In this document: one piece after another, positions 6,048-62,623 of the stretch
Numbering within the stretch: position 1 is the stretch's first letter
How the letters are laid out: every line of letters starts with the position of its first letter
From: Actinomycetota bacterium
GTDB lineage: Bacteria; Actinomycetota; Geothermincolia; Geothermincolales; RBG-13-55-18
Length of the DNA: 64,000 nt
Assembly: GCA_015711955.1 (NCBI GenBank)
Contig: MU158684.1
Location: forward strand, 11,815-75,814
Direction: 5' to 3'
Notes under the pieces: generated by a model
Told to the model about the DNA's origin: nothing
Databases searched by the model: none
Seen by the model: the letters and a program-made list of their open reading frames with translations, nothing else
Made by a program: the position numbers and the translations under genes

Positions 6048-8513
6048 TCAGGGAAATGGACCGTCGTCTTTCCCGGTTGGGTTTAGGCGGGGAAACCGGA
6101 TGCGCAGGACCTTTCCCATGCCAAGGCTTTCCAGGCTCCCACCCATGAGCCCCACAAACCGTCTTGCCAGGGTGAGACCCAAGTCTTCCCGAGCCTCGTT
6201 TTCGCGGGCATTTTCCATGGTTCCCGTTGCGCCTTCGCCCTTCTCGCTGGACAGGACCGTGATCTGCGTCCCTTCTTCCCCTTTGCGCCAGACGAGAAGG
6301 ATCCTAGCCGGTGGCGAGGCAGGCCACGAAAGGGTGGCGAGGCGGATCGCCTGGGCCAGGCGTTCCGGGTCCACGACCACCGAACCACCTTCGCCATCTT
6401 CCTCCACCTCGGTTTCCACCTCTCCCACGGCCGCCGTTCGCAGCAAGTCCGCCACGTCCTCGGGGCTCAGTTCGCATAGGGCGAGGGACGTCTTGCCCGC
6501 CTCCACCCTCATGAGGTCGAGGAGCGCCTCCGTGAGCTCTCCCAATTCGCTGGCCCGCTGGAGGATCTGTATGCCCACCTCGCGCACCCTTGTCTCGGAA
6601 AAGGTGGAGTGGAGCTCCAGGGAAAGGTCCCTGATGGTCTGCAGGGGTCCTATCATGCCTTTCCCCGCCGTCTCCAGCAGTCGGGAAGCTTCCCGGTCCC
6701 GTTCCCTGGCAACCCTCAGCGATTCCCTCAGCTGATCCAACTGCTCCTCCAGAAGGCGGGTTTCCCGTTCCACGGCCATGACGAAGAAGGATATGAGTAC
6801 CAAGGAAAAGGCGTGGGTCGCGAGGACCATCGCGTCGCGAGCGGGGGACACAGCGGAGGGTACCAGGTACGCCAGCAGGGAACAGGTCAAGATAAAGATG
6901 TTCAGGCCCATCTGCCCTGATCTTGCGAGGTGGGTCGCGGAGGTCAGGATGGGGGGGAAGGAAAGGAGCGCTCCCCTCTCCAGTGCCGCCACCCAATAGG
7001 CAAGAAGGAGGAAGAGCGCCGCTGACCTCAGGGCGTGGAGAAGGTGGCCGGCGTTGCGATCGGGTCTTGTGACAAGGAGGGAGAGCAGAAGGACCAAGAG
7101 GTATGAGAGGGCCTTGCCGGGGCGGAGGGGCCCCGCGTGGCCGAAAAGGGCGAGCACGCCGAGGTAGAAGAGGAGGAACAGGGGCAGGTGGCCTACATGA
7201 CCCTTAATAGGGTGGTTATTCCTCCCCACCTTGACTCTCCCCTCGGGGCGTTGCGGGGTTCGCGCCGGCTCCTCGGATATGGGCAGGAGGAGGGTGAAGG
7301 TCGACCCCTTGCCCGGAGAGGTCACCACTCGGACGGTCCCGCCGTGAGAATCCGCGACTCCCTTGACCACTGCCAGTCCCAAGCCCGCTCCTCTGGGGTC
7401 CACCTCCCTTGAGCCGGTTCCCCTTCGAAAGGAGTGGAATATGAAGGCCAGCTCCTCCCGGGGAATGCCTGGGCCTCGGTCGGTCACCGAAACGTAAGCA
7501 TATCTCTCCGTGGAACCCACCCTCACCGTCACCACCTCCCCGGGAGGAGAGAACTTGATGGCGTTGGAGATGAGGTTGCCCAGCGCCAGTTGGACCATGG
7601 TGGGATCGGCGAGGATTATAGGGACTTCTCCGGAGCGCTCCAACCTCACTGAGACCTCATCCCGGAGCATGGAGGAGGCCTCGCATACCTCGGCCGCCAA
7701 CCGATCGAGCTCCAGCGGTTCCTTTCTCGGCGCGATCTCGCTCTCCACCCGGCAGAGATCCAAAAGCCCGGAAGCCAACCGAAGCATCCTTTCGGAGTTC
7801 TCCCCGATGATACGGGCGAACTCGTCCACTTTCTTGCCCGGCGGTTTCCTGGAGGAAAGTATCTCGGCGAAACCCTGCATGGACGTGAGGGGGGTTCGTA
7901 GCTCGTGGGAAACGGCGGAGATCCGCTCTGACTTTTCCCTTCCCCTTTCCAGGTGCCTTTCCAACTCCAGGGAAAGGGTTTCCCTGGTGCCCTCGATTTC
8001 CAGGATCTCCCTGCGCATGTCCATACCCAGCAAGACGCCCGCAAGGAACCACCCCGATCTTACCGCGGTTACCGCCCAATCGCCGCCCCTATGAGCCGAG
8101 ATCGTTACCGCTAAGGCGGTTGAGAGGATCAGCCAGAGGGATAAGGCGCAACGGTGGTCCAAGGAGACTCCGGCCAGAAGACAGCAGAAGAAGGCCATGG
8201 GGAAAAATGGGCTCTCGACCCCTCCGCCGAATGCCACGGCCAACACCGACAGGATGGACAAGGCCACAGCGCTTCCCAGGAACTGCGGCATGCCGGTGAG
8301 TGTCTCCCCTTCCCGGGGGAACCTCACCCGCACGGCGTGGTGCAGCAGGGCGAGCACCGCCAGGGAGATGGCGACGGCGTATAGGGCGGAGCGGTCGGTG
8401 TTCACTCGAGAGGGAAGGGATATGGCCAAGAGCAGACACGGCACGGCGGCCGCCGCTAAGAGGGAGAGTGCCCTGGATATCCTCCGCTCAAGGGGCATCT
8501 TCCTCCTCCCCAA
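6048..8513 (-). CDS. Tandem membrane sensor histidine kinase (intact HisKA/HATPase module followed by a degenerate second module)
   Basis: Module 1 has TM helices, H-box SHELRTPL, N-box NLISNAIKF, G1 DRGPGI and G2 GAGLGLAVV. Module 2 has new TM helices, a coiled coil, a DHp-like segment without the His, and an HATPase-like end that keeps only DLGLTLARRF. Confidence 0.85.
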   Translation of the reverse strand: MGRRKMPLERRISRALSLLAAAAVPCLLLAISLPSRVNTDRSALYAVAISLAVLALLHHAVRVRFPREGETLTGMPQFLGSAVALSILSVLAVAFGGGVESPFFPMAFFCCLLAGVSLDHRCALSLWLILSTALAVTISAHRGGDWAVTAVRSGWFLAGVLLGMDMRREILEIEGTRETLSLELERHLERGREKSERISAVSHELRTPLTSMQGFAEILSSRKPPGKKVDEFARIIGENSERMLRLASGLLDLCRVESEIAPRKEPLELDRLAAEVCEASSMLRDEVSVRLERSGEVPIILADPTMVQLALGNLISNAIKFSPPGEVVTVRVGSTERYAYVSVTDRGPGIPREELAFIFHSFRRGTGSREVDPRGAGLGLAVVKGVADSHGGTVRVVTSPGKGSTFTLLLPISEEPARTPQRPEGRVKVGRNNHPIKGHVGHLPLFLLFYLGVLALFGHAGPLRPGKALSYLLVLLLSLLVTRPDRNAGHLLHALRSAALFLLLAYWVAALERGALLSFPPILTSATHLARSGQMGLNIFILTCSLLAYLVPSAVSPARDAMVLATHAFSLVLISFFVMAVERETRLLEEQLDQLRESLRVARERDREASRLLETAGKGMIGPLQTIRDLSLELHSTFSETRVREVGIQILQRASELGELTEALLDLMRVEAGKTSLALCELSPEDVADLLRTAAVGEVETEVEEDGEGGSVVVDPERLAQAIRLATLSWPASPPARILLVWRKGEEGTQITVLSSEKGEGATGTMENARENEAREDLGLTLARRFVGLMGGSLESLGMGKVLRIRFPRLNPTGKDDGPFP

Positions 8514-11226
8514 GCTCTTCCTCCCAGTGCCCTCCCCCTTCCTGCTGGCTCTGTATGGCGTCCACGATGCTGCTGTATGCCACGATGCTTCGGTCCACCA
8601 GGTCCATGGCTGAGGAGACCAGCAAAGTCAGGGACTCGTCTTCGGCGACCTCCTTGATTTGGCGGAGCAGGTCGATGACTTGCTTCATGCAGCGGACGAA
8701 ATCCCCCGCCGAATACTGGGGATAGGTGGCGGTTATGTGTTCCAGGTCCTCCCCCGAGGCCCAGTCATATGCCACGGGCACGAAACCGGTGTCCACCGGC
8801 TTGAGCAGGTCAAGGCCCTCTTCCCGCTCTAACTCCTTTATCTCCTCCTGCCGCCTCAAGGCCCAGTCTATGGACCTTTCCAGTTGGGGGGTGGGATAGG
8901 ACGCCTTCTCCCGCACTTTAGCCTTCTCACCCCTTTCCCGGGGAACGGGGCCCGATTCCCTGGACTCGTAGACGAAGATGCTCGCGAAAGCCGCCGCCTC
9001 TTCCGGTCTGAGGAGGTGGAACACCCCTTCCTCTAAGGCCTCCACCAGCAGGAGGTCGCATTCGTTGTATATCCTTCCCAAGACCATGCCCTTGGGAGTG
9101 GGGGATCCGTCCTCCAGGTAACCGAGTTTGACCAAGAGCCTCTTCACGTTCTCGAGTTTCCGGGAGGCCACCTCGCTGCGGGCTTCCATCTGGTCGTTGA
9201 TGGCGCGCACTTCCCGCCTGAGGTCCAGCACCCGGCGAAAACCGAACACGCACTCCTCCCTTTTGGGGCAAAAGTGACAGGGGTGAACCGCAAGTTGTTT
9301 TCTGGTCTCCTCTATCTCCTCTCGCATGGGAGGATGAGGTTCTTCTTCCCACCTCTCCGGCTCCGGCAGCTCCAGCTCCCTTAGGAAGCGGCGGACCTCC
9401 CGTTCCCTTATCCTCCCGCCGGGAGAGAGCAGCGAGGGAGGGAGATGGGCTATGGCTTGGGGTGGCTGGGGGAAATGTTGGTGGGTGGCCTTGAGGAAAC
9501 GGCCTCGCGAGTCCATGACGGTGAGGCGAGGGTTACCGTGTCGGTCCTCCGACAGACCGAGGACCACGGCCGCCCGCCTTTCCCCCTTGCGCTGGATGAC
9601 CACCACGTCCCCCACGGCGGTCTCTTCCATCTCCCTGTGGATAAGTTCCCTCCTTCTTTTGCGCCTCTCCTCCGCGGCTTCTTTCTCCATCTCGGAGAGC
9701 CGGCGTCTCAGCCCGAAGTATTCCTCCACGTTTCCCTCATCGCACGAGAGTTCCCTCTCGAGCTCGGCCAGACGGCTTTCCAACCTGTTGCGGGCCCTCT
9801 CCAGCCTCACCACCTCCCGATCGGCTAAGAACTGGGCGAAGCTGGAGTTGAGGAGGTGGACCGCCGTCTCGTGGTCGTAGTATCGGAGGAGGTTAACCGC
9901 CATGTTGTAGGATAGGGAAAAACTGGATGTGATGGGAAGGCTTTCCGCTTGGGCTAGCCTCCTCACCTCCTCGAAAGAGACCATGGGATTGTACAAGGTG
10001 ACCGCGTTCCCCACCTTATCGATACCCCTACGGCCCGCCCTTCCGGTGAACTGGGTGTACTCGGTGGGGGTCAGGAACTCGTGGGTCTCGCCGCTGAACT
10101 TGAAAAGGGATTCGATGACCACCGTCTTGGCCGGCATGTTTATCCCCAAAGAAAGGGTCTCGGTGGCGAACACGACTTTTATCAGGCCCTGAGCGAAAAG
10201 GTCCTCCACCAGCTCCTTGAAGAGGGGGAGAAGCCCGGCGTGATGGGAGGCGAGGCCCTTCCTCAAGGCGTCTAACCACAGGTCGAAGTTGAACACCTTC
10301 AGGTCTTGCTGCGACAGGAAGGAAACTCTTTCCAGCACCGTGTCCTCTATCACGTGCTTCTCCTCGGTGGAGGTGAGGTCCAACCCCGCTTCCATGCAAT
10401 GGCCCACGGCGGCGTCACAACCAGCTCGGCTGAAGATGAAATATATGGCGGGAAGCATCCCGGAACGCCTCAACCTGTCCACCACCTCCGCCCGACGAGG
10501 TATCAAGTGGCGGGGGCTGGGCCTCTTGCCTCCCCTTCTCCGGCTGGCCATCCTCTCCATCTCCGCCACCAGCCGGGGAGCCTTGGAGGAAAGGAGGTTC
10601 ACCATGATACCGTCCACCATGAAGAAGTGCCTTAGGGGTACCGGCCTCTCGCCGTGGAACACCGTTCTCACGTCGCCGCGCAAGGTGTTGAGCCATTCGC
10701 CGAATTCCCTGTAATTGGAGACGGTGGCCGAAAGGGCTATTATCTTGACGTCGGTGGGTAAGTGGATGATTATCTCTTCCCACACCGCCCCTCGGAAGGG
10801 ATCCATGAGATAATGACACTCGTCAAGCACCACGTATTTGAGCCCGTACAGGGACGGGGACCTTTCGTAGATCATGTTGCGCAGTACCTCGGTGGTCATG
10901 ATCACCACCGGCGCCTCGGGGTTTATGCTGTTGTCGCCGGTGAGAAGCCCCACCTTCTCGGGCCCGTATTGGGCGCGGAAATCCCTGAACTTCTGGTTGC
11001 TCAGGGCTTTCAGGGGGGTAGTGTAGTAGGTCTTCAGCCCGGACCGTTCCGCTGCCCACACGGCGAACTCCGCAACCACCGTCTTCCCGGAGCCGGTGGG
11101 GGCCACCACCAGTACCGAACGATCCTCGGACAGATGCCTGATGGCTTCGATCTGGAACGGGTCCAAGCTGAAGGGATAGCGGGAGATGAACTCCTCGACT
11201 ATGTCCGGTGTGGCCGTTTCCTTCAC
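8488..11226 (-). CDS. helY: Ski2-like DEAD/DEAH-box RNA helicase (HelY type)
   Basis: Motifs APTGSGKT, DECH, SAT and the TETLSLGINMPA / QFTGRAGRRG helicase motifs are present, with a long C-terminal Ski2/DSHCT-like region. Its 3' end overlaps the kinase gene start by 26 nt. Confidence 0.9.
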   Translation of the reverse strand: MKETATPDIVEEFISRYPFSLDPFQIEAIRHLSEDRSVLVVAPTGSGKTVVAEFAVWAAERSGLKTYYTTPLKALSNQKFRDFRAQYGPEKVGLLTGDNSINPEAPVVIMTTEVLRNMIYERSPSLYGLKYVVLDECHYLMDPFRGAVWEEIIIHLPTDVKIIALSATVSNYREFGEWLNTLRGDVRTVFHGERPVPLRHFFMVDGIMVNLLSSKAPRLVAEMERMASRRRGGKRPSPRHLIPRRAEVVDRLRRSGMLPAIYFIFSRAGCDAAVGHCMEAGLDLTSTEEKHVIEDTVLERVSFLSQQDLKVFNFDLWLDALRKGLASHHAGLLPLFKELVEDLFAQGLIKVVFATETLSLGINMPAKTVVIESLFKFSGETHEFLTPTEYTQFTGRAGRRGIDKVGNAVTLYNPMVSFEEVRRLAQAESLPITSSFSLSYNMAVNLLRYYDHETAVHLLNSSFAQFLADREVVRLERARNRLESRLAELERELSCDEGNVEEYFGLRRRLSEMEKEAAEERRKRRRELIHREMEETAVGDVVVIQRKGERRAAVVLGLSEDRHGNPRLTVMDSRGRFLKATHQHFPQPPQAIAHLPPSLLSPGGRIREREVRRFLRELELPEPERWEEEPHPPMREEIEETRKQLAVHPCHFCPKREECVFGFRRVLDLRREVRAINDQMEARSEVASRKLENVKRLLVKLGYLEDGSPTPKGMVLGRIYNECDLLLVEALEEGVFHLLRPEEAAAFASIFVYESRESGPVPRERGEKAKVREKASYPTPQLERSIDWALRRQEEIKELEREEGLDLLKPVDTGFVPVAYDWASGEDLEHITATYPQYSAGDFVRCMKQVIDLLRQIKEVAEDESLTLLVSSAMDLVDRSIVAYSSIVDAIQSQQEGGGHWEEELGEEEDAP

Positions 11227-26718: not shown

Positions 26719-27723
26719 ATGGGCGTCCGGGAGGACATTGAGGAGCTGGAGGAGCGCTGGCTCTCGCCCTTTGCGGTGCGCAGCCGGGAGAGCAGGGGAA
26801 GGGTCAGACCGGAAGAACCGGATCCCCTGCGCACATGCTTCATGCGGGATCGGGATCGGATCATCCACAGCAAGGCCTTCCGCCGCCTGAAACACAAGAC
26901 CCAGGTGTTCCTCGCCCCCGAGGGAGACCATTACCGTACCCGACTGACCCATACTCTCGAGGTCAGCCAGATTTCCCGTACCATAGCCCGGGCGCTGCGT
27001 CTCAATGAGGATCTCACGGAGGCCATCGCCTTGGGGCACGACCTGGGCCACACTCCTTTCGGTCACATAGGGGAGGAGGCCTTCAAGGACCTGACCCCCA
27101 GGCCTTTTCGCCACAACGAGCAGAGCCTGCGGGTGGTGGACAGGCTGGAGTACGGGGGGAAGGGACTCAACCTCACCTGGGAGGTGAGGGACGGTATATT
27201 GCATCACACCGGTTCCAGTCCCCTTCCTTCCACCCTGGAGGGGAGGATCGTGAGGATAGCCGACCGGATCGCCTATGTCAATCACGACGTGGACGACGCC
27301 ATAAGAGCGGGCATCCTCACCGAAAAGGACCTGCCCCGTTCCACTGTGGAAGTTCTGGGCAGGCATCACAGCCAGAGGATCGACACCTTGGTGAGGGACA
27401 TCGTGAGGGAGAGCGCGGGCAAGCCAGACATCCTCATGAGCCCGGAGGTCGCCGCCGCCCTAAATGAACTGCGAGATTTCCTGTTCCAACGGGTTTACGT
27501 CGGTTCCGTGGCCAAGCAGGAGGAGGAAAAAGCGGTGATCGTGCTGAGGAGCCTCTTCTCCTATTATCTGGAACACCCGGAGGAGATGCCCGAGGAGTTC
27601 CGTAGGGGAGATGAGGAGCTCAGTGTGAGGGTCTGCGATTACGTGGCGGGGATGACCGATCGATATGCCCTGCGCAAATACCAGGAGATCTTCCTGCCCA
27701 AGGTCTGGGTGGGGGACCTCTGA
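26719..27723 (+). CDS. dgt: dGTP triphosphohydrolase-like HD protein
   Basis: FMRDRDRIIHSKAFRRLKHKTQVF, YRTRLTHTLEV and GHDLGHTPFGH are present. Confidence 0.9.
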   Translation: MGVREDIEELEERWLSPFAVRSRESRGRVRPEEPDPLRTCFMRDRDRIIHSKAFRRLKHKTQVFLAPEGDHYRTRLTHTLEVSQISRTIARALRLNEDLTEAIALGHDLGHTPFGHIGEEAFKDLTPRPFRHNEQSLRVVDRLEYGGKGLNLTWEVRDGILHHTGSSPLPSTLEGRIVRIADRIAYVNHDVDDAIRAGILTEKDLPRSTVEVLGRHHSQRIDTLVRDIVRESAGKPDILMSPEVAAALNELRDFLFQRVYVGSVAKQEEEKAVIVLRSLFSYYLEHPEEMPEEFRRGDEELSVRVCDYVAGMTDRYALRKYQEIFLPKVWVGDL

Positions 27724-31734: not shown

Positions 31735-32670
31735 TCACCATCCTTCCAGAAATCCCCCCTCCCTCAGGTAGGCGTACGCGGATAGGGCGGCCTTGGCCCC
31801 CTCCCCGGCGGCGATGATGATCTGCTTCTCCTGGACGTCGGTGACGTCACCGGCTGCGAAGATGCCGGGTACGCTGGTGCGGTTGTTGGAGTCCACCATC
31901 ACCTCGCCTTTGTGGTTCAACTTCACTTCGGGGGGGAGGAAGTCAGTGCTGGGGATGCTCCCTATCTCCACGAAGACCCCCTCCACCGGAAGGCTCTGCG
32001 CCTTTCCGTCGACCTCGAAATCGATGGCCTTCACGAACCTGTCGCCCCGGATGGCGCGGATCTGGGCCCGGTAATAGACCTTGATCCGACCGTGCCCGAG
32101 GACGGCCTGGCGCCGTACCTCGTCCCCTCCCAACCTGTCCTCTATGGTCATGAGGTGTACCTCCGTGGCCAGTTCTCCCAGCTGGAGGGCGGCGTCCAGG
32201 GCGGAGTTCCCGCCCCCCACCACCGCCACCCGCTTGCCCCGGAACAAGGGAGCGTCGCAGGTGGCGCAGTAGGCCACGCCCCTTCCCCGGAACTCCCTCT
32301 CGCCCGGGACCCCCAGCGGCCTGGGGACCTTTCCGGTGGCCACTATCACGGCCGGTGCCAGGTGTTCCCCCATCGAGTGGGCCACGCCGATGAGCTGTTC
32401 CGATCTCCTTACGGAAGTCACCCGGGATCCTTCCAGGAGATCCACGTCGAAGGTCTCCAGATGGGCCCGGAACCTCTCCACCAGTTCCGCCCCGGTGATC
32501 AGCTGGTAGCCCAGGTAGTTCTCCACCTCCCAGGACCAGGCGGCCTGTCCTCCTACGTTCTCCGAGATGACCAGGGTGCGCAGCATCTTCCTGGCGCAGT
32601 ATACGCCCGCCGATAGGCCAGCGGGTCCGGCGCCTATGATAATCACGTCCGCGTGGGGCTGTTTTTCCAT
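31735..32670 (-). CDS. trxB: Thioredoxin-disulfide reductase-like flavoprotein
   Basis: GAGPAGLSAG, the redox centre GVAYCATCDAPLF, GGGNSALD and AAGDV are present. Confidence 0.85.
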   Translation of the reverse strand: MEKQPHADVIIIGAGPAGLSAGVYCARKMLRTLVISENVGGQAAWSWEVENYLGYQLITGAELVERFRAHLETFDVDLLEGSRVTSVRRSEQLIGVAHSMGEHLAPAVIVATGKVPRPLGVPGEREFRGRGVAYCATCDAPLFRGKRVAVVGGGNSALDAALQLGELATEVHLMTIEDRLGGDEVRRQAVLGHGRIKVYYRAQIRAIRGDRFVKAIDFEVDGKAQSLPVEGVFVEIGSIPSTDFLPPEVKLNHKGEVMVDSNNRTSVPGIFAAGDVTDVQEKQIIIAAGEGAKAALSAYAYLREGGFLEGW

Positions 32671-32724: not shown

Positions 32725-34614
32725 TCACTGATCCCCCCGCCACTGCTCAGCCGCCGCCGGGGTCTCCAAGTCCCGTTTTTCTTCCCTCAGGGAGGCAAGG
32801 AGACGGCGGAACTCCTCTCCCTCCAGCGTCTCCTTTTCCAAGAGTACCTCGGTGATCCTCTCCAAAGCGTCCCGGTTCTCCTGGAGCAACTTCTTCACCC
32901 GCTCGTAGTTCTCCAGGACGATCCTTTTGACCTCGGCGTCCACCAGCTGGGCAGTGGCCTCGCTGTAGTTGGCCTCCTTGCCGTAGGAGTACTCGCCCAT
33001 GAGCAGCCTTGCCGCCCTCTCCCAGCCCAGGGAGAGAGGTCCCACCCGATCGCTCATCCCGTAGTCCTCCACCATTTTGCGGGCCAGGATGGTGGCCTTC
33101 TCCAGGTCGTTCTGGGCCCCGGTGGACACCTCCCCGAAAAAGACCTCCTCGGCGGCCCTCCCTCCCAATAGGACCGCCAGTCGGTCCTCCAGCTCCCTCC
33201 TGGTCAGGATGTAGCGGTCCTCCTCCGGTAACTGCATGGTCATGCCCAGGGAGCCGATACCGCGCGGGATTACGGTGATCCGGTGCACCGGGTCCGCGTT
33301 CTCCAGCAGGGAGGCGGTCAGGGCGTGGCCCACCTCGTGCACCGCCACCACCCGCCTCTCCTTTTCGCTCATAACCCGGCTCTTGAGCTCCAGGCCGCCG
33401 ATGACCCGGTCGATGGCTTGCTCGAAGTCCTCCATGTCCACTCGACTCTTCCCCTTGCGGGCGGCCAGCAGGGCGGCTTCGTTGACCACGTTGGCCAGTT
33501 CCGCCCCAGCGAAACCGGGAGTGCGGGCGGCGATGACCTTGAGGTCCACGTCAGGAGCCAGTTTCACCCGTCGGGCGTGCACTTTGAGGATCTCCTCCCG
33601 GCCCTTGATGTCCGGCCGGTCTATCATTATCTGCCGGTCGAAGCGTCCCGGGCGCAGGATGGCCTTGTCCAGCACTTCGGGGCGGTTGGTGGCGGCCAAG
33701 ATGATCACCCCCGTCTGGGGGTCGAATCCGTCCATCTCCGAGAGCAGCTGGTTTAGGGTCTGTTCCCTTTCCTCCACACCTCCGCTGGCGATGATGCCCC
33801 CTCGCACCTTGGCTATGGTGTCTATCTCGTCGATGAAGACTATGCAGGGCGCCTTGGCCTTGGCCTGTTCGAATAGGTCGCGCACCCTGGCCGCTCCCAC
33901 CCCCACGAACATCTCCATGAACTGGGACCCGCTGATGGAAAAGAAAGGCACGTCCGCTTCCCCCGCGACCGCTCGGGCGAGCAGGGTCTTCCCGGTGCCG
34001 GGTGGCCCCACCAGCAGCACCCCTTTGGGTATGCGTGCCCCGATCTTCCTGTATTTGTCGGGATGGCGGAGGAAATCGATGATTTCCTTTAGCTCCTCTT
34101 TGGCCTCGTCCAGACCGGCGACGTCGTCGAACGTGACCCGGTCCTTGCTGCGGTCATAGATCTTCACTTTGGACTGCCCGAAGGATAGGGGGCTGCTGCC
34201 GCCGACCCTACGGGAAAGCCTGCGGAATATGAGGAGCCAAACCAGGACCAGTATGCCGATGGGTATCAACCATGAGTAGAGTAGATCCCGCCAGAAGGTG
34301 TTCTCCACCTTGCCGGAGAACTGCACTCCCTTTTCTTCCATCTTTTGGATGAGGCCCTCGATGTCAGAGTTGGGGATGCGGGTGGTGACGAAGTTCCTCT
34401 CGGTGCCGTCGTCCCCCGTTCGCATCACCCCCTCTATCCTGCTTTCGGTGATGACGGCTTTCACCACCTCGCCGGCCTCCAGGCGGGCGAGAAAGTCGCT
34501 GTAGCTGATCTCCGCGGGGCGGAAAGGATGGGCCAGTTGCAGGGAGAGTAGAAAGGCCACGGCGATGGCCCCGTAGACCAGATAGAGCAGGGTTTTCCTT
34601 CTCTTTTCGTCCAT
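32725..34614 (-). CDS. ftsH: ATP-dependent zinc metalloprotease FtsH
   Basis: GPPGTGKT, the AAA second region of homology and the zinc site HEVGHAL are present, with an N-terminal TM pair. Confidence 0.95.
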
Positions 34615-35056: not shown

Positions 35057-35195
35057 GTCCCCTGCCAGGGGCTTTGAACGCGCGTTCCGGGTTTATCCTT
35101 CGGGCCGGGAATTTTTTACCTACACCTCGTCCCCTCCCAGAGGCCTTGAACGTGCGTTTCGGGTTTATCCGCATGCCTTACCGGGAATATCTAAA
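35057..35195. repeat. Two-copy tandem repeat (period 72 bp) upstream of the ferritin-like gene
   Basis: The 42-nt core gtcccctGccagGggcTttgaacgCgcgttCcgggtttatcc (35057) recurs at 35129 with 5 mismatches. A shared CCGGGAAT follows each core after an indel. Copy 1 contains the perfect palindrome GAACGCGCGTTC. Confidence 0.7.
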
Positions 35196-35553: not shown

Positions 35554-35791
35554 GACCGATACGCGTCGAGAAGAGCGGAATGGATTGAATAACCGCGTCC
35601 GATTCGAGCAAGGGGCACAACAGGCGTTCAGAAATGACCAGTTTCCACGGCGAGGAGGAGGTGATGGAATGGGTGCTCAGGGAAAGCCCGAGGACAAATG
35701 CGTCACTCCGGCCAAAGGGCCGATATTGCCTGAGGAGTCCGATGCTCTCGCGTCGGATGCCGCCCGAAAGATCGGCGCTGAGGAGGTGGGC

Positions 35792-36400
35792 ATGAAAGTG
35801 TTGGCCAAGGTGGGAGGAAAGGCACCGGACTTCGAGGCCAGTGCCTACTTGGACGGGGGCTTCAGGAACATAAGGCTTTCCGATTACCGGGGAAAGTGGG
35901 TGGTCCTCTGTTTTTACCCCGGTGATTTCACCTTCGTATGACCGACCGAGCTGGCGGCGGTCGCCGCCAGGTATGGGGAGCTGAAAGAGCTCGGGGTGGA
36001 GGTGCTGGCCATCAGTGTGGACAGCCGCTTCAGTCACAAGATCTGGCAGGAAGTGGAGCTTTCCAAGATGGTGGAGGGAGGGGTGCCCTTCCCCCTGCTG
36101 AGCGACCCGGGAGGAAAGATAGGGCAGGTCTACGGGGTATACGACGAGGAATCCGGCGTCAACATCCGCGGGAGGTTCCTCATCGACCCCGAGGGCGTCA
36201 TCCAGGCCATGGAGGTGCTCACTCCTCCAGTGGGCCGCAACGTGAGCGAGCTCATCCGGCAGGTGAAGGCCTACCAGCACGTGGCGGCCACTGGCGAGGT
36301 GACCCCCTCCGGATGGCAGCCTGGTAAGCCCACCCTGAAGCCTGGCCCCGATCTGGTGGGCAGGGTCTGGGAGGTCTGGAAGCCGGAGTACGCCTCCTGA
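35792..36400 (+). CDS. prxU: Selenocysteine-containing peroxiredoxin (AhpC/Prx1 type), Sec encoded by TGA at 35939-35941
   Basis: Track ORFs 35585..35941 and 35996..36400 share one frame. Read-through gives ...[25 protein letters not shown]..., the universal FTFVCPTE motif with TGA in place of the Cys codon. ATG at 35792 after GAGGAGG. The product is 202 aa. Confidence 0.8.
35951..35970 (+). promoter_or_regulatory. SECIS-like hairpin
   Basis: Perfect 8-bp stem CTGGCGGC/GCCGCCAG with GGTC loop. It starts 9 nt after the TGA, and the loop lies about 18 nt from the UGA. Confidence 0.7.
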
Positions 36401-36431
36401 AATAGGACAACGGGACAAGGGAATCTCCGAG

Positions 36432-36462
36432 AACCGGGAACCGCTGGTTCCCGGTTTATTAT
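36432..36462 (+). terminator. Intrinsic terminator after the peroxiredoxin gene
   Basis: AACCGGGAACC-gct-GGTTCCCGGTT followed by TATTATT. Confidence 0.65.
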
Positions 36463-36769: not shown

Positions 36770-37147
36770 TCAGGATGACTTCCACAATCCATGCAGGTTG
36801 CAGTACTCCCGGGCGGTTATCCCGTCGGTGGGTACGGTGAAGTCGCCTCGGGGGTCGATGCCTGGTTTGAGGAAGATACGGTAGCTCTTGTCCCCGGCGA
36901 TGATCTGGACCCACTCTATGTAGTGTTCCTCGGTCATGGGATGGGCCACCTCGCCCACTTTGACCATGACCCCCTCGGGGGTGACTTCCACCACCGGGAC
37001 GTGTTTCTCCACCGCCGCGTCCACGGTGTTCTCCACCTGGAGCGCCATGGGCTCTCCGCAGCAAACCAGCTCTCCCTGGCCTTCGTGGAGCACTTCCACT
37101 ATGTTTCCACATACCTCGCACTTGTAGATCTGGAGCCTCTCGGTCAT
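36770..37147 (-). CDS. dfx: Desulfoferrodoxin (2Fe superoxide reductase)
   Basis: The N-terminal desulforedoxin site is YKCEVCGNIVEV...LVCCGEPM. The C-terminal SOR domain has HPMTEEHYIEW...CNLHGLW. Confidence 0.9.
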   Translation of the reverse strand: MTERLQIYKCEVCGNIVEVLHEGQGELVCCGEPMALQVENTVDAAVEKHVPVVEVTPEGVMVKVGEVAHPMTEEHYIEWVQIIAGDKSYRIFLKPGIDPRGDFTVPTDGITAREYCNLHGLWKSS

Positions 37148-37166: not shown

Positions 37167-37676
37167 CTAGAACTCCACGAACTTATCCTTGGACGCCCCG
37201 CAAATGGGGCACTTCTCCGGCGCTTCTCCTTCCCGTGTATGTCCGCAGACGCTGCAAATCTGTATCTTGCCGATGGAGATGTCGGACCCTCTTTCCACCG
37301 CCTCCTTGGCCTTCTTGTACCAGTCGGCGTGGATCTTCTCGGCCTCCAAGGCGTAATGGGTGCTTCTCACCGCGTCCTTTTCGTCCTGGAACTTGGCCGC
37401 CTCGTGGAAGACGGGATACATCTCCTCTATCTCGTAGGTCTCGCCCTCGATGCAGCTCTGGATGTTGTCCGCAGAGGATCGGATACCGCCCAGCACTTCG
37501 AGATGGTTTCCCGCGTGGACCAGCTCCGCGTAGGCGATGGCCCGGAACATGCGGGCAAGTTCCCTGAGACCTTCCTCATCGGCCTTGCGGGCGAAGTGCA
37601 TATATTTCATGTGGGCCATGCTCTCACCGGCGAAGGCCTCGTTGAGGAATTTCTCCGTCATCTTCCTCATGCTCAT
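37167..37676 (-). CDS. rbr: Rubrerythrin
   Basis: The di-iron four-helix motifs are [10 protein letters not shown]...[10 protein letters not shown]...GETYE...ALEAEKIH. The C-terminal rubredoxin site is CSVCG...CPICG. Confidence 0.9.
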
Positions 37677-37839: not shown

Positions 37840-38472
37840 TCAGCCCACCCGTTTTCCCAACAGGGCCCTGACCGGAGAGGCCTCCGCTCCCACAAGCCTG
37901 AGCGGCAGACATAGGAGTAGGTATTTCCCCGGTGTCACCCCTCTCAAGTCGAGGCCCTCCAGGATCCATATACCGGCCTCGGCGAGGATCCTGTGAACTT
38001 CCCCGTCCCCGTCCCAGGGTTCCACCGACAGGTAGTCGATGCCCACCAAGGCAATGCTACGGTCGGCAAGGAAGCGAGCAGCTTCGCAGGTGAGCGCGAC
38101 ATAGTCCTGGCGGAATTCCTCGGTTTCATAAAAACGGGAATTCATCGTCTTGAAGAGGATCCTATCCCCCTCGGACGGATCTACGCGACGAATGTCCTCC
38201 AACCCGATATGGTCACGGCCCATGTACTCCACCACTCTGGCCGAACCCAGGACGGCCTGTGGGGGAAGGTCATCAACCGATCTCCCCCCCGGCAGGCAGT
38301 GGAGGGGAGCGTCCATGTGGGTGCCGCAATGGAGGCTCATGGAAACCGAGGAGACCCTGTAATTCCCCTCCTGGCACGTCCTTACGGTGAGGCGGAAGGG
38401 CTCGTCCCCCGGCCATAGGGGAAGCCCCCCTGAAAGGGGCAGGCTCACGTCAATCCACCGATATCCCTCCAT
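37840..38472 (-). CDS. Cyclase-family protein / arylformamidase (KynB-like)
   Basis: The metal motif is HCGTHMDAPLH, and GIDYLSVE is present. Confidence 0.8.
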   Translation of the reverse strand: MEGYRWIDVSLPLSGGLPLWPGDEPFRLTVRTCQEGNYRVSSVSMSLHCGTHMDAPLHCLPGGRSVDDLPPQAVLGSARVVEYMGRDHIGLEDIRRVDPSEGDRILFKTMNSRFYETEEFRQDYVALTCEAARFLADRSIALVGIDYLSVEPWDGDGEVHRILAEAGIWILEGLDLRGVTPGKYLLLCLPLRLVGAEASPVRALLGKRVG

Positions 38473-45631: not shown

Positions 45632-46171
45632 GTGGGTTCCATCGGCCTTATCTGCTTCGGGTCCTTCGATTACCGGGAGCTGAGCTTTCTCCCTTCCCGT
45701 CTGCGGGAGTTGTTGGGGCTGAAGGCCCTCTGGGCGGGGCATGTACCCTTGCCAGGCTCAGCCTACCGGCGCGCTCGGGGTCAGTACTTGGCCTCTGGGT
45801 TGCTGGAGTCCCTCACGGCTATGGGTGGCGATCATCTGAAGCTGTTGGGATTGACCGAAGAGGACCTTTATGCCCCCGGGCTTAATTTCGTCTTCGGGCA
45901 GGCCCAGTGGGGAGGGAGGTGTGCCGTGGTTTCCCTGGCGCGGCTTCGCCCCACTTTCTACGGTCTGCCCCACCGGGAGCGGCTCTTTTGTTCCAGGACG
46001 GTGAAAGAGGCGGTGCACGAGCTCGGCCACACCTTCATGCTCCCCCATTGTCCCAACCCCTATTGCGTCATGTGTTTTTCCAATTGTCTCGAGGATACGG
46101 ATCGCAAGTCGGAGGAGTTCTGCGCCGAGTGCCGCGAAATCCTCGATCGAACGCTCCGGGGATTGCGCTGA
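45632..46171 (+). CDS. Archaemetzincin (peptidase M54) family zinc protease
   Basis: HELGHTFMLPHCPNPYCVMCFSN...FCAEC fits the HExxHxxGx3Cx4CxMx17CxxC signature. GTG start. Confidence 0.8.
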   Translation: MGSIGLICFGSFDYRELSFLPSRLRELLGLKALWAGHVPLPGSAYRRARGQYLASGLLESLTAMGGDHLKLLGLTEEDLYAPGLNFVFGQAQWGGRCAVVSLARLRPTFYGLPHRERLFCSRTVKEAVHELGHTFMLPHCPNPYCVMCFSNCLEDTDRKSEEFCAECREILDRTLRGLR

Positions 46172-60375: not shown

Positions 60376-61173
60376 GTGATCATCAACTGCGGTGAGGCAA
60401 TGAGGAGGTTGAGGGTGAGCATTCTTGTTAAGCCCTCTTCGATCTCTAATACGAGCGTCGCAGACGAGTCTGACCGCATGAGGGAGGACGAGCGGAGGAT
60501 GCTGGTGCTACAATGTTGGGAGAGATTGGAAGGCAAATACAAGATCCCGGAGAGGCCCAAGGCACCCCTCTTAGACGCCCTTTTTAGGGTGCTCCTTTCC
60601 CAGAACACCACCGACAGGAATTGCGACGTAGCGTTTTCTCGCCTCAAGGAACGTTTCCGCCAGTGGGAGGAGGCGGAAACCGCCTCCTTGGAGGATTTGG
60701 AGGAGGCCATCAGGCCCGCGGGCATGTCCAAGATAAGGGCCTCGAGGATCAAGGAGATCCTGGCTTTACTCAAGGAGACTCATAAATCGCTTGACTTGGA
60801 GTTTCTGAAGAAGCTCGACCCCGAAAGCGCGCTGGATTTCCTCCTGTCCCTCCCCGGCGTGGGCATCAAGAGCGCCAGCGTCCTACTCTTGTTCTATCTT
60901 GGTCATCCCTTTTTCCCAGTGGACACCCACGTTTACCGGGTGGGAAGAAGGTTGGGCGTGATACCTCTGCGTCTTGACGTGAAGAAGGCCCACGAGCACA
61001 TGAACCGGGTAGTGCCCGACGATCTGAAGTATCCTTTTCATATGGCCTTGGTGATGCACGGCCGCAGGGTATGTCGGGCTCGCAATCCGCGTTGCGGGGA
61101 GTGCGTTTTGGATGACATATGCCAGAAAGTGGGTCTCGGACTTGAAGACGGAAGAGCCGATCGGGAAGACTGA
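60376..61173 (+). CDS. Endonuclease III-like HhH-GPD DNA glycosylase with 4Fe-4S loop
   Basis: LLSQNTTD, the HhH sequence LPGVGIKSASVLL, VDTHVYRV and the C-terminal CRARNPRCGECVLDDIC are present. The start is uncertain (GTG 60376, ATG 60400 or ATG 60478). Confidence 0.85.
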   Translation: MIINCGEAMRRLRVSILVKPSSISNTSVADESDRMREDERRMLVLQCWERLEGKYKIPERPKAPLLDALFRVLLSQNTTDRNCDVAFSRLKERFRQWEEAETASLEDLEEAIRPAGMSKIRASRIKEILALLKETHKSLDLEFLKKLDPESALDFLLSLPGVGIKSASVLLLFYLGHPFFPVDTHVYRVGRRLGVIPLRLDVKKAHEHMNRVVPDDLKYPFHMALVMHGRRVCRARNPRCGECVLDDICQKVGLGLEDGRADRED

Positions 61174-61174
61174 G

Positions 61175-62623
61175 ATGGGTCTGAAGGCGAGGTTCTTAAA
61201 AAGGGCGAAGCCGGTTTTTGGGGTCTTTTTGGCCCTATGCCTGGTGGCGTTGACCTTCCTTCCCCCACCCCTCTTGGCGACGGGGGCCAGCTCCGGAGTG
61301 GGTCCTGCTCAGTTGCAGGCCCTGAAAGCACAGGTGGAAAGGATAAGAGGGATCAGGGCGCCAGATTCGGTTAGGCTCCAGTACTTGTCCCGCTCGGGTC
61401 TTAGGGAAAAAGTCTTGGAAAACCTGCGCGAGGAAAAGAGCCAAAAGGAGCTGACGAGCGCGGAGGAGATCATGAAGATGCTCGGGTTGATCCCTCCGGA
61501 TCTGGACCTGGCCAAATTGCTGGTGGAGCTTTACACCGAGCAGGTAGGGGGTTTTTACGATTCGGAGGACGACGCCCTTTATCTCGTGGCAGATGCAGCG
61601 GAGATGAACGTGATGGATAGGCTGACTATGGCCCACGAGCTGGTCCATTTCCTGCAGGATCATCGCTTTCGGCTGGACCGGGCCCCTTTCAGCGACAAAG
61701 ATGAGGAGGTGGACGACGACCGCCTTTTCGCCGCTTCCTGCTTGGTGGAAGGGGATGCCATGCTCACTTCCCAGCTTTGGGCCCGGGATCACCTTTCACC
61801 CCATGAGTTAATGCAGCTTGGGGAGTTGAGCAGGAGAGTTCCCACCGACGTTCTTGACCGGGCTCCTCGATATGTAAGAGAATCCCTTCTCTTTCCCTAC
61901 CAGGGCGGTATGGAGTTCGTCGCTCGGCTTTACAGGAAAGGCGGTTTCGCGGCGGTGGACAGGGCCTTCGAGGACCCCCCCAGGTCCAGCGAGGAGGTCA
62001 TGCACCCCGACAAATATCTTTCGGGAGAAAGGCCGTTGGAGGTGGACATCCCTCCTTTGGGCTTGGAAGGCTGGGAGAAGGCCTACGAGAACGTGCTGGG
62101 GGAGTTCGACGTCTACCAGTTGTTCTCCCTTTTCATTCCCGACCATGAGGCTAAGAGAGCGGCTGAGGGATGGAACGGCAACCGCTATGCTTATTTCCGT
62201 GTCCCGGAGGGAGGACAAGTCCTGGCCTGCGTTTTCCTTTGGGACTCGGCGCTCGATGCGGAGGAGTTCATCGTGGCCTTTCAAAGTCATTTGGAAAGTA
62301 GGTTCGGCGGCCGCCTAAATCCCCGCGTGGACCAGGGTTGGAAGCTGGTGGAGGTGGGGGGCTACTTTTACGCTTGGGATTTGAAAGGCGAAAGGGCCCG
62401 ACTGATACAGACCAACTCGCACCAAGCCTTGGAGCAAGTCAAGTCGGCATTAGGGGGTACAGAGGGGGAGCCCTCGGGAGACGAGCGGGAGCCGGAGAAA
62501 ACACGAGATGTGAGTGGATGGCGGTTTACGGCGGTGGCGGCCCTTGTGGCCTCTTTGTTCGTGTTAGGACTTCTCCTCGCAGTTTTCATCTTGGTGTCCT
62601 ATCGTCGACGCCCAAAACCCTAG
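61175..62623 (+). CDS. HExxH zinc-metalloprotease-like protein with N-terminal signal or anchor and C-terminal TM helix
   Basis: MAHELVHFLQDH is present. The N-terminal hydrophobic segment is VFGVFLALCLVALTFL. The C-terminal segment is FTAVAALVASLFVLGLLLAVFILV. ATG at 61175 sits directly after the upstream stop. Confidence 0.65.
   Translation: MGLKARFLKRAKPVFGVFLALCLVALTFLPPPLLATGASSGVGPAQLQALKAQVERIRGIRAPDSVRLQYLSRSGLREKVLENLREEKSQKELTSAEEIMKMLGLIPPDLDLAKLLVELYTEQVGGFYDSEDDALYLVADAAEMNVMDRLTMAHELVHFLQDHRFRLDRAPFSDKDEEVDDDRLFAASCLVEGDAMLTSQLWARDHLSPHELMQLGELSRRVPTDVLDRAPRYVRESLLFPYQGGMEFVARLYRKGGFAAVDRAFEDPPRSSEEVMHPDKYLSGERPLEVDIPPLGLEGWEKAYENVLGEFDVYQLFSLFIPDHEAKRAAEGWNGNRYAYFRVPEGGQVLACVFLWDSALDAEEFIVAFQSHLESRFGGRLNPRVDQGWKLVEVGGYFYAWDLKGERARLIQTNSHQALEQVKSALGGTEGEPSGDEREPEKTRDVSGWRFTAVAALVASLFVLGLLLAVFILVSYRRRPKP

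Follow-up and report, generated by a model that had tools for sequence, protein, structure and literature searches.

Background

Peroxiredoxins containing selenocysteine (Sec) are an experimentally established family of prokaryotic selenoproteins, going by the entries for Söhling et al. (2001) in the lists of PMC13188914 and PMC9312934. A survey from 2006 counted 12 Sec-peroxiredoxin genes (PMC1794560), and by 2016 the number had risen to 91 genes in 78 organisms (PMC5029168). The gene described here belongs to this known and widespread family - PrxU in Eubacterium (Peptoclostridium) acidaminophilum, model NF040737, 'Peroxiredoxin (Prx), TxxU' in the Zhang/Gladyshev surveys - and leaves the principle of a Sec-peroxiredoxin unchanged. 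Shared with the family are an AhpC/Prx1-type fold with Sec in the motif PxxxTxxU, a SECIS element inside the open reading frame directly past the UGA, the lack of a Cys at the EVCP site, anaerobic hosts, and a model score above the equivalog cut-off. The characterised PrxU of E. acidaminophilum is a short form of about 203 residues, with Sec near position 47; the gene analysed here, in contrast, most likely encodes a 41-residue N-terminal extension that includes an invariant Cys. The hosts differ as well, in that E. acidaminophilum is a clostridial amino-acid fermenter, whereas the organism studied here seems to be related to an uncultured anaerobic member of the Actinomycetota known from a metagenome-assembled genome (MAG).

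Two further systems offer useful comparisons. Typical 2-Cys peroxiredoxins (human Prx2, structures 7kj1 and 1qmv; bacterial AhpC, structures 1yep and 4ma9) have in common with our gene product an active site of the FTFVCPTE type and the conserved Arg, but their peroxidatic residue is Cys and not Sec, they carry EVCP where our sequence has EVTP, and they have no Cys-bearing extension at the N-terminus. At the RNA level, the SECIS of Escherichia coli fdhF presents a GGUC-type apical loop with an exposed G and U. The hairpin reported below resembles the SECIS elements of fdhF and of Moorella thermoacetica in lying within the reading frame just past the UGA and in having such a loop with the G and U exposed. 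It differs from that of fdhF in that its stem is a perfect 8 bp without the bulged U, and in that the stem is mostly encoded by the stretch Ala-Ala-Val-Ala-Ala, so that constraints on protein and RNA coincide.

Results and discussion

A peroxiredoxin gene with an in-frame TGA

The DNA analysed, a stretch of 64 kb referred to throughout as the window, contains two forward-strand open reading frames, 35585..35941 and 35996..36400, that lie in one common frame; translation across the TGA at the end of the first continues into PTELAAV. A preliminary description of the locus had pointed to this shared frame and read-through, to a hairpin beyond the TGA and to EVTP in place of EVCP, and all four statements were confirmed when the sequence was read again. 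For annotation, the consequence is that the two fragments are best joined as a single selenoprotein gene, 35669..36400, in which residue 91 is Sec. The features of the locus are collected in Table 1.

Table 1. Features of the prxU locus and its surroundings, in coordinates of the window
Feature	Position	Strand	Basis or remarks
TrxR/AhpF-like flavoprotein	31735-32670	-	3 kb upstream of prxU; 287.7 bits, below the TrxR cut-off of 343
FtsH	32725-34614	-	
EncB-like ferritin-like protein	ends 35553	+	
Shine-Dalgarno-like sequence GGAGGAGGTG	35653..35662	+	sequence; 6 nt before ATG 35669
prxU coding sequence, 243 codons including predicted Sec91, stop TGA 36398-36400	35669..36400	+	NF040737 match, homologue alignments
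TGC codon of Cys11, motif D-x-C-V-x-P-A-K/R-G-P-I	35699..35701	+	candidate resolving/partner thiol
Alternative start ATG (Met42)	35792	+	gives the 202-residue form
In-frame TGA, predicted Sec91 codon	35939..35941	+	peroxidatic position of P-x-x-x-T-x-x-U, YPGDFTFVU
Predicted SECIS hairpin CTGGCGGC-GGTC-GCCGCCAG	35951..35970	+	fold, family alignment A2, pair counts
E210-V-T-P, Thr at the resolving-Cys site (EVCP) of typical 2-Cys peroxiredoxins	36296..36307	+	sequence, alignment to human Prx2
Terminator-like hairpin CCGGGAACC-GCTG-GTTCCCGG, then T-run TTTATTATT	36434..36462	+	sequence; 34 nt past the stop codon
Desulfoferrodoxin	36770-37147	-	
Rubrerythrin	37167-37676	-	
Arylformamidase	37840-38472	-	

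Scored with Cys substituted for the TGA, the 243-residue translation reaches 382.3 bits against NF040737 ('peroxi_PrxU'), an NCBIfam equivalog model for a thioredoxin-dependent peroxiredoxin with a cut-off of 270, and the match spans profile positions 3-232 of 233; the shorter form of 202 residues obtains 374.8 bits over positions 34-232. The active site reads P84-G-D-F-T88-F-V-U91, that is, PxxxTxxU, the conserved Arg is present, and T88, V90, T93, E94, R167 and G168 are invariant in our alignment of homologues (A1). Among solved structures, those nearest by sequence belong to typical 2-Cys peroxiredoxins; human Prx2 (7kj1) matches residues 46-228 with E = 2e-52, and in this comparison the E210-V-T-P stretch falls opposite GEVSPAGW of the 7kj1 chain, in which the EVCP site carries Ser in that entry. 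The protein itself falls outside the typical 2-Cys/AhpC group on two counts, namely EVTP instead of EVCP and a score of 198 bits against the AhpC equivalog TIGR03137, for which the cut-off is 272. The absence of Cys from this site is usual in the family, most members having T, M or A at that position. We consider 35669-36400 on the forward strand very probably to be one intact gene for a presumably thioredoxin-dependent Sec peroxiredoxin of the PrxU family, with an AhpC/Prx1-type fold and predicted Sec insertion at the TGA.

When all in-frame TGA codons of the window were scanned for coding potential, coding-like sequence on both sides was seen at two places only, the TGA at 35939-35941 and the glyQ/glyS junction, and no second candidate for a recoded TGA was found in the 64 kb. 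Since 33 of the 42 supported genes in the window, prxU itself among them, end in TGA, this codon has not been globally reassigned, and the genetic code is standard. This bears on whether the UGA could be read as Trp, Gly or Cys, either through an alternative code or through near-cognate read-through, as might be thought from the many database entries that translate the codon as W (71 of the best 120 database proteins at the Sec column). For one of these, the JGI protein P0001, the DNA was inspected: the codon is TGA, and the W looks like an artefact of gene calling under code 4. Decoding as another amino acid is highly improbable, for TGA serves as the ordinary stop here, Trp in place of the peroxidatic residue would abolish catalysis, and the conserved SelB-type hairpin would be left unexplained.

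The entries with Trp, P0001-P0010 and the 71 of the best 120 proteins, stem from JGI, ENA and Logan calls, and look like the result of code-4/25 calling on short contigs, which would amount to a systematic mis-annotation. The preliminary description had expected automatic annotation to miss genes such as this one. That is borne out for plain ORF callers, and for the JGI short-contig calls with their W, but it is too sweeping for NCBI, where an equivalog model for PrxU is maintained.

Conservation of the TGA among homologues

Homologues were surveyed with one genome per species, which gave 80 loci and, as the closest set, 84 PrxU-like genes from many phyla, including Chloroflexota, Thermodesulfobacteriota, Bacillota, Acidobacteriota, Ignavibacteria, Zixibacteria and Actinomycetota. 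A comparison of TGA with Cys codons at the Sec91 column had been proposed in the preliminary description; among these closest genes, drawn from about 80 species-representative genomes, TGA is found in 83 and TGC in one, and in homologues farther removed the codon is TGT or TGC. The Sec form is thus dominant among the closest relatives of this PrxU. The single TGC gene (L012) is a close homologue, and it has retained the hairpin.

That last case, together with the fact that one base separates TGC from TGA, is what could be cited for an ordinary Cys-type peroxiredoxin whose TGC or TGT was mutated to TGA, leaving a pseudogene, or misread as TGA in sequencing or assembly. Such an origin would have to accommodate the same TGA in 83 of 84 genes, that of the syntenic relative included, as well as a covarying SECIS and a downstream half without decay, and we regard it as most unlikely. 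The syntenic relative is an Actinomycetota MAG (L006, JABLXL010000009.1); in the comparison with it, over the 148 codons after the TGA, dN is 0.127 and dS 0.96 (dN/dS ~0.13), which indicates that the downstream half is translated and under selection. Degradation of this half in relatives that keep the stop, a possibility raised in the preliminary description, is not seen in the comparison with L006. Its main proposal, that ORF calling has split a Sec peroxiredoxin of the PrxU kind and that the gene is no pseudogene, is supported by the PrxU model, the conservation of the TGA, the covarying SECIS, purifying selection downstream and the standard use of TGA as stop.

Several surveyed loci are more complex. 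Three of them, L034 (5882, 6884), L039 (7692, 10241) and L046 (166, 1165), each carry two TGA-containing prx paralogues 1-2.5 kb apart; one copy in L034 and one in L046 have the canonical EVCP, which means that Sec-type 2-Cys forms exist too. At two others a further stop lies in frame ahead of the Sec codon, a TGA in L014 (10169) and, between extension and core, a TAG in L063 (10067). These extra stops could reflect assembly errors, decay or an uncoupling of the N-terminal extension.

The hairpin downstream of the TGA

Nine nucleotides past the TGA begins a perfect 8-bp stem (35951-35958 paired with 35963-35970) closed by a GGUC loop (35959-35962), in which G35960 and U35961 are the invariant bases and G35959:C35962 the covarying closing pair. 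The spacing from UGA to loop is 17 nt, placing the exposed G-U 17-18 nt past the UGA; the loop accordingly lies within the 16-37 nt from the UGA given as a rule for the apical loop of bacterial SECIS elements (PMC10778597).

Judged from the window alone, the hairpin is only moderately better than chance. Its minimum free energy is -22.6 kcal/mol (z = -2.1), and eight of 200 shuffled sequences fold equally well. If the same peptide is recoded with the codon usage of the window, an 8-bp stem arises in 7.9% of trials, a frequency explained by the intrinsic self-complementarity of Ala-Ala-Val-Ala-Ala codons; a stem together with a pairable loop-closing 21:24 pair arises in 0.85%. A search of the surroundings against Rfam at a permissive E-value returned noise, with no bacterial SECIS family at E ≤ 10.

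The decisive evidence is comparative, and consists in the TGA of 83 of the 84 genes and the covariation of the stem. In an alignment of 45 nt beginning at the TGA (A2), the hairpin is common to all 84 homologous genes and 86.9% of cells are paired, a value reached by none of 500 shuffles. Compensatory changes, affecting both sides, occur in seven of the nine pairs, and the covariation score of 0.291 compares with 0.155 ± 0.010 for shuffled alignments and with 0.116 or less for slid registers. The loop-closing 21:24 pair alternates between AU (49 genes), GC (31) and GU (2), almost wholly through synonymous third positions, while the G and T of loop columns 22-23 are invariant. As a control, weak in that it comprises only four sequences, the DNA of Cys-type homologues also contains partial, shorter hairpins, attributable to the self-complementary codons of Ala-Ala-Val-Ala-Ala. 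The homologue set presents a very clean covarying SECIS, and we take the hairpin in the window to be a canonical bacterial SECIS, predicted from this pattern to bind SelB.

Start site and N-terminal extension

Translation was placed at ATG 35792 in the preliminary description, giving a protein of 202 residues. ATG 35669 is instead the most likely start: the 41 additional residues contain an invariant Cys, the longer form matches the PrxU profile from one end to the other, and a strong ribosome-binding site precedes it. In the syntenic relative L006, GAGGAGGAGGTG precedes the equivalent long-form ATG, and the place corresponding to the short-form start lacks an ATG.

A second strong Shine-Dalgarno-like sequence, GAGGAGGTGGGC, is found inside the extension at 35781-35791, just before Met42, and L006 has a similar GGAGGGAGGAGGTGGGACG (~10080-10100) ahead of an in-frame GTG at the matching place. 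These internal sites might allow dual initiation, with long and short isoforms.

The extension is marked by the motif around Cys11. All 41 long-form homologues, Sec- and Cys-type alike, have this Cys; conservation of P14 and G17 reaches 90% or more in the same set, and about 72 of 89 genes examined contain the motif or a variant of it. In an AlphaFold2 model of a Cys-type homologue (P0023), the peroxiredoxin core is confidently predicted, with a mean pLDDT of 86.7, and values in the N-terminal extension are only 47-62. We rejected the notion that the N-terminal Cys and EVCP exclude each other, most members being without EVCP whatever their N-terminus.

The invariant Cys11 also affects how the enzyme is to be classed. 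The preliminary description had called it a 1-Sec peroxiredoxin; this agrees with EVTP, which leaves the EVCP site without Cys, but the lack of any resolving thiol is unproven given Cys11, so the label is not settled. A tentative prediction, which we hold to be possible though rather doubtful, is that Cys11 acts as resolving partner of Sec91 by forming a selenenyl-sulfide that thioredoxin would then reduce. If so, long-form PrxU would constitute an undescribed '2-Cys-like' subclass of Prx1, with the resolving residue at the N-terminus and not at the C-terminus. We found no discussion of the long-form motif with its invariant N-terminal Cys in the literature searched, and this motif may be the sole element of the locus that goes beyond that literature.

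A model for decoding and catalysis

The observations suggest a model in which the UGA at 35939-35941 would be decoded as Sec by the complex SelB·GTP·Sec-tRNA(Sec), SelB being drawn to the mRNA by the in-frame hairpin at 35951-35970, with the exposed G-U of its GGUC loop. As the peroxidatic residue of PxxxTxxU, in place of Cys, Sec91 would then reduce peroxides. For this particular organism we infer Sec insertion and the presence of its machinery, and likewise the reductant and what the N-terminal Cys does; Sec decoding is deduced because the gene is intact, under selection and provided with a SECIS.

Gene neighbourhood and selenocysteine machinery

The neighbourhood of prxU is an oxidative-stress cluster of an anaerobe. 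The order RpoD...TrxR-FtsH-EncB-like-PrxU-Dfx-Rbr is common to the window and L006, with amino-acid identities of 47-89%, and the prxU of L006 has both the TGA and the hairpin. Desulfoferrodoxin or rubrerythrin genes adjoin prxU at many other surveyed loci as well. By implication, the source organism would possess the Sec-decoding trait and use selenium in peroxide defence beside desulfoferrodoxin and rubrerythrin.

When about 45 ORFs of the 64-kb window were scanned with Pfam and NCBIfam, neither selA nor selB nor selD came up; a search for tRNA-Sec with ARAGORN and Rfam was likewise negative, and Pfam, NCBIfam and the scan of in-frame TGAs revealed no other selenoprotein gene. Selenoproteins, and the Sec trait too, are commonly lost as bacteria evolve (PMC1794560), and one could accordingly see in prxU a relic from an organism that has lost Sec decoding, the UGA now terminating translation after a 90-residue fragment of an incipient pseudogene. 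We judge this very improbable, if slightly less so than the alternatives considered above. The absence of sel genes from the window carries little weight because 64 kb is a few percent of a genome. The downstream half is intact, with the low dN/dS against the closest syntenic relative, and the SECIS is perfect in its 8-bp stem and GGUC loop. An intact gene for a Sec peroxiredoxin is still the reading that we prefer.

Elsewhere in the survey, an Anaerolineaceae MAG (L033) has a tRNA-Sec gene with anticodon tca at 9861-9956, immediately upstream of a TGA-containing prxU. In the window, ARAGORN reported a 92-nt 'tRNA-Pro(ggg)' at 27143-27234; it is most probably a false positive, as it has no Rfam support and lies inside the ORF of an HD-domain (dGTPase-like) protein (26719-27723).

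Some further features of the window may be mentioned. A terminator scan gave overlapping matches at 36431-36455, downstream of prxU, where the number of matches does not exceed the expectation from shuffled sequence. Just upstream of the oxidative-stress cluster, a stretch of about 600 bp without assigned gene, between ftsH and the EncB-like gene, contains a 42-nt direct repeat (35057-35098 and 35129-35170; 88% identical, spacing 72 nt), which could be regulatory. Farther away, the window encodes a Ski2/Mtr4-like helicase with a DSHCT domain (8488-11226), a peptidase M54 of the archaemetzincin family (45632-46171) and a surface protein of the Hvo_1808 family (61112-62623), family names that we take to be associated with archaea and that occur here amid bacterial RpoD, DnaG and GlyQS.
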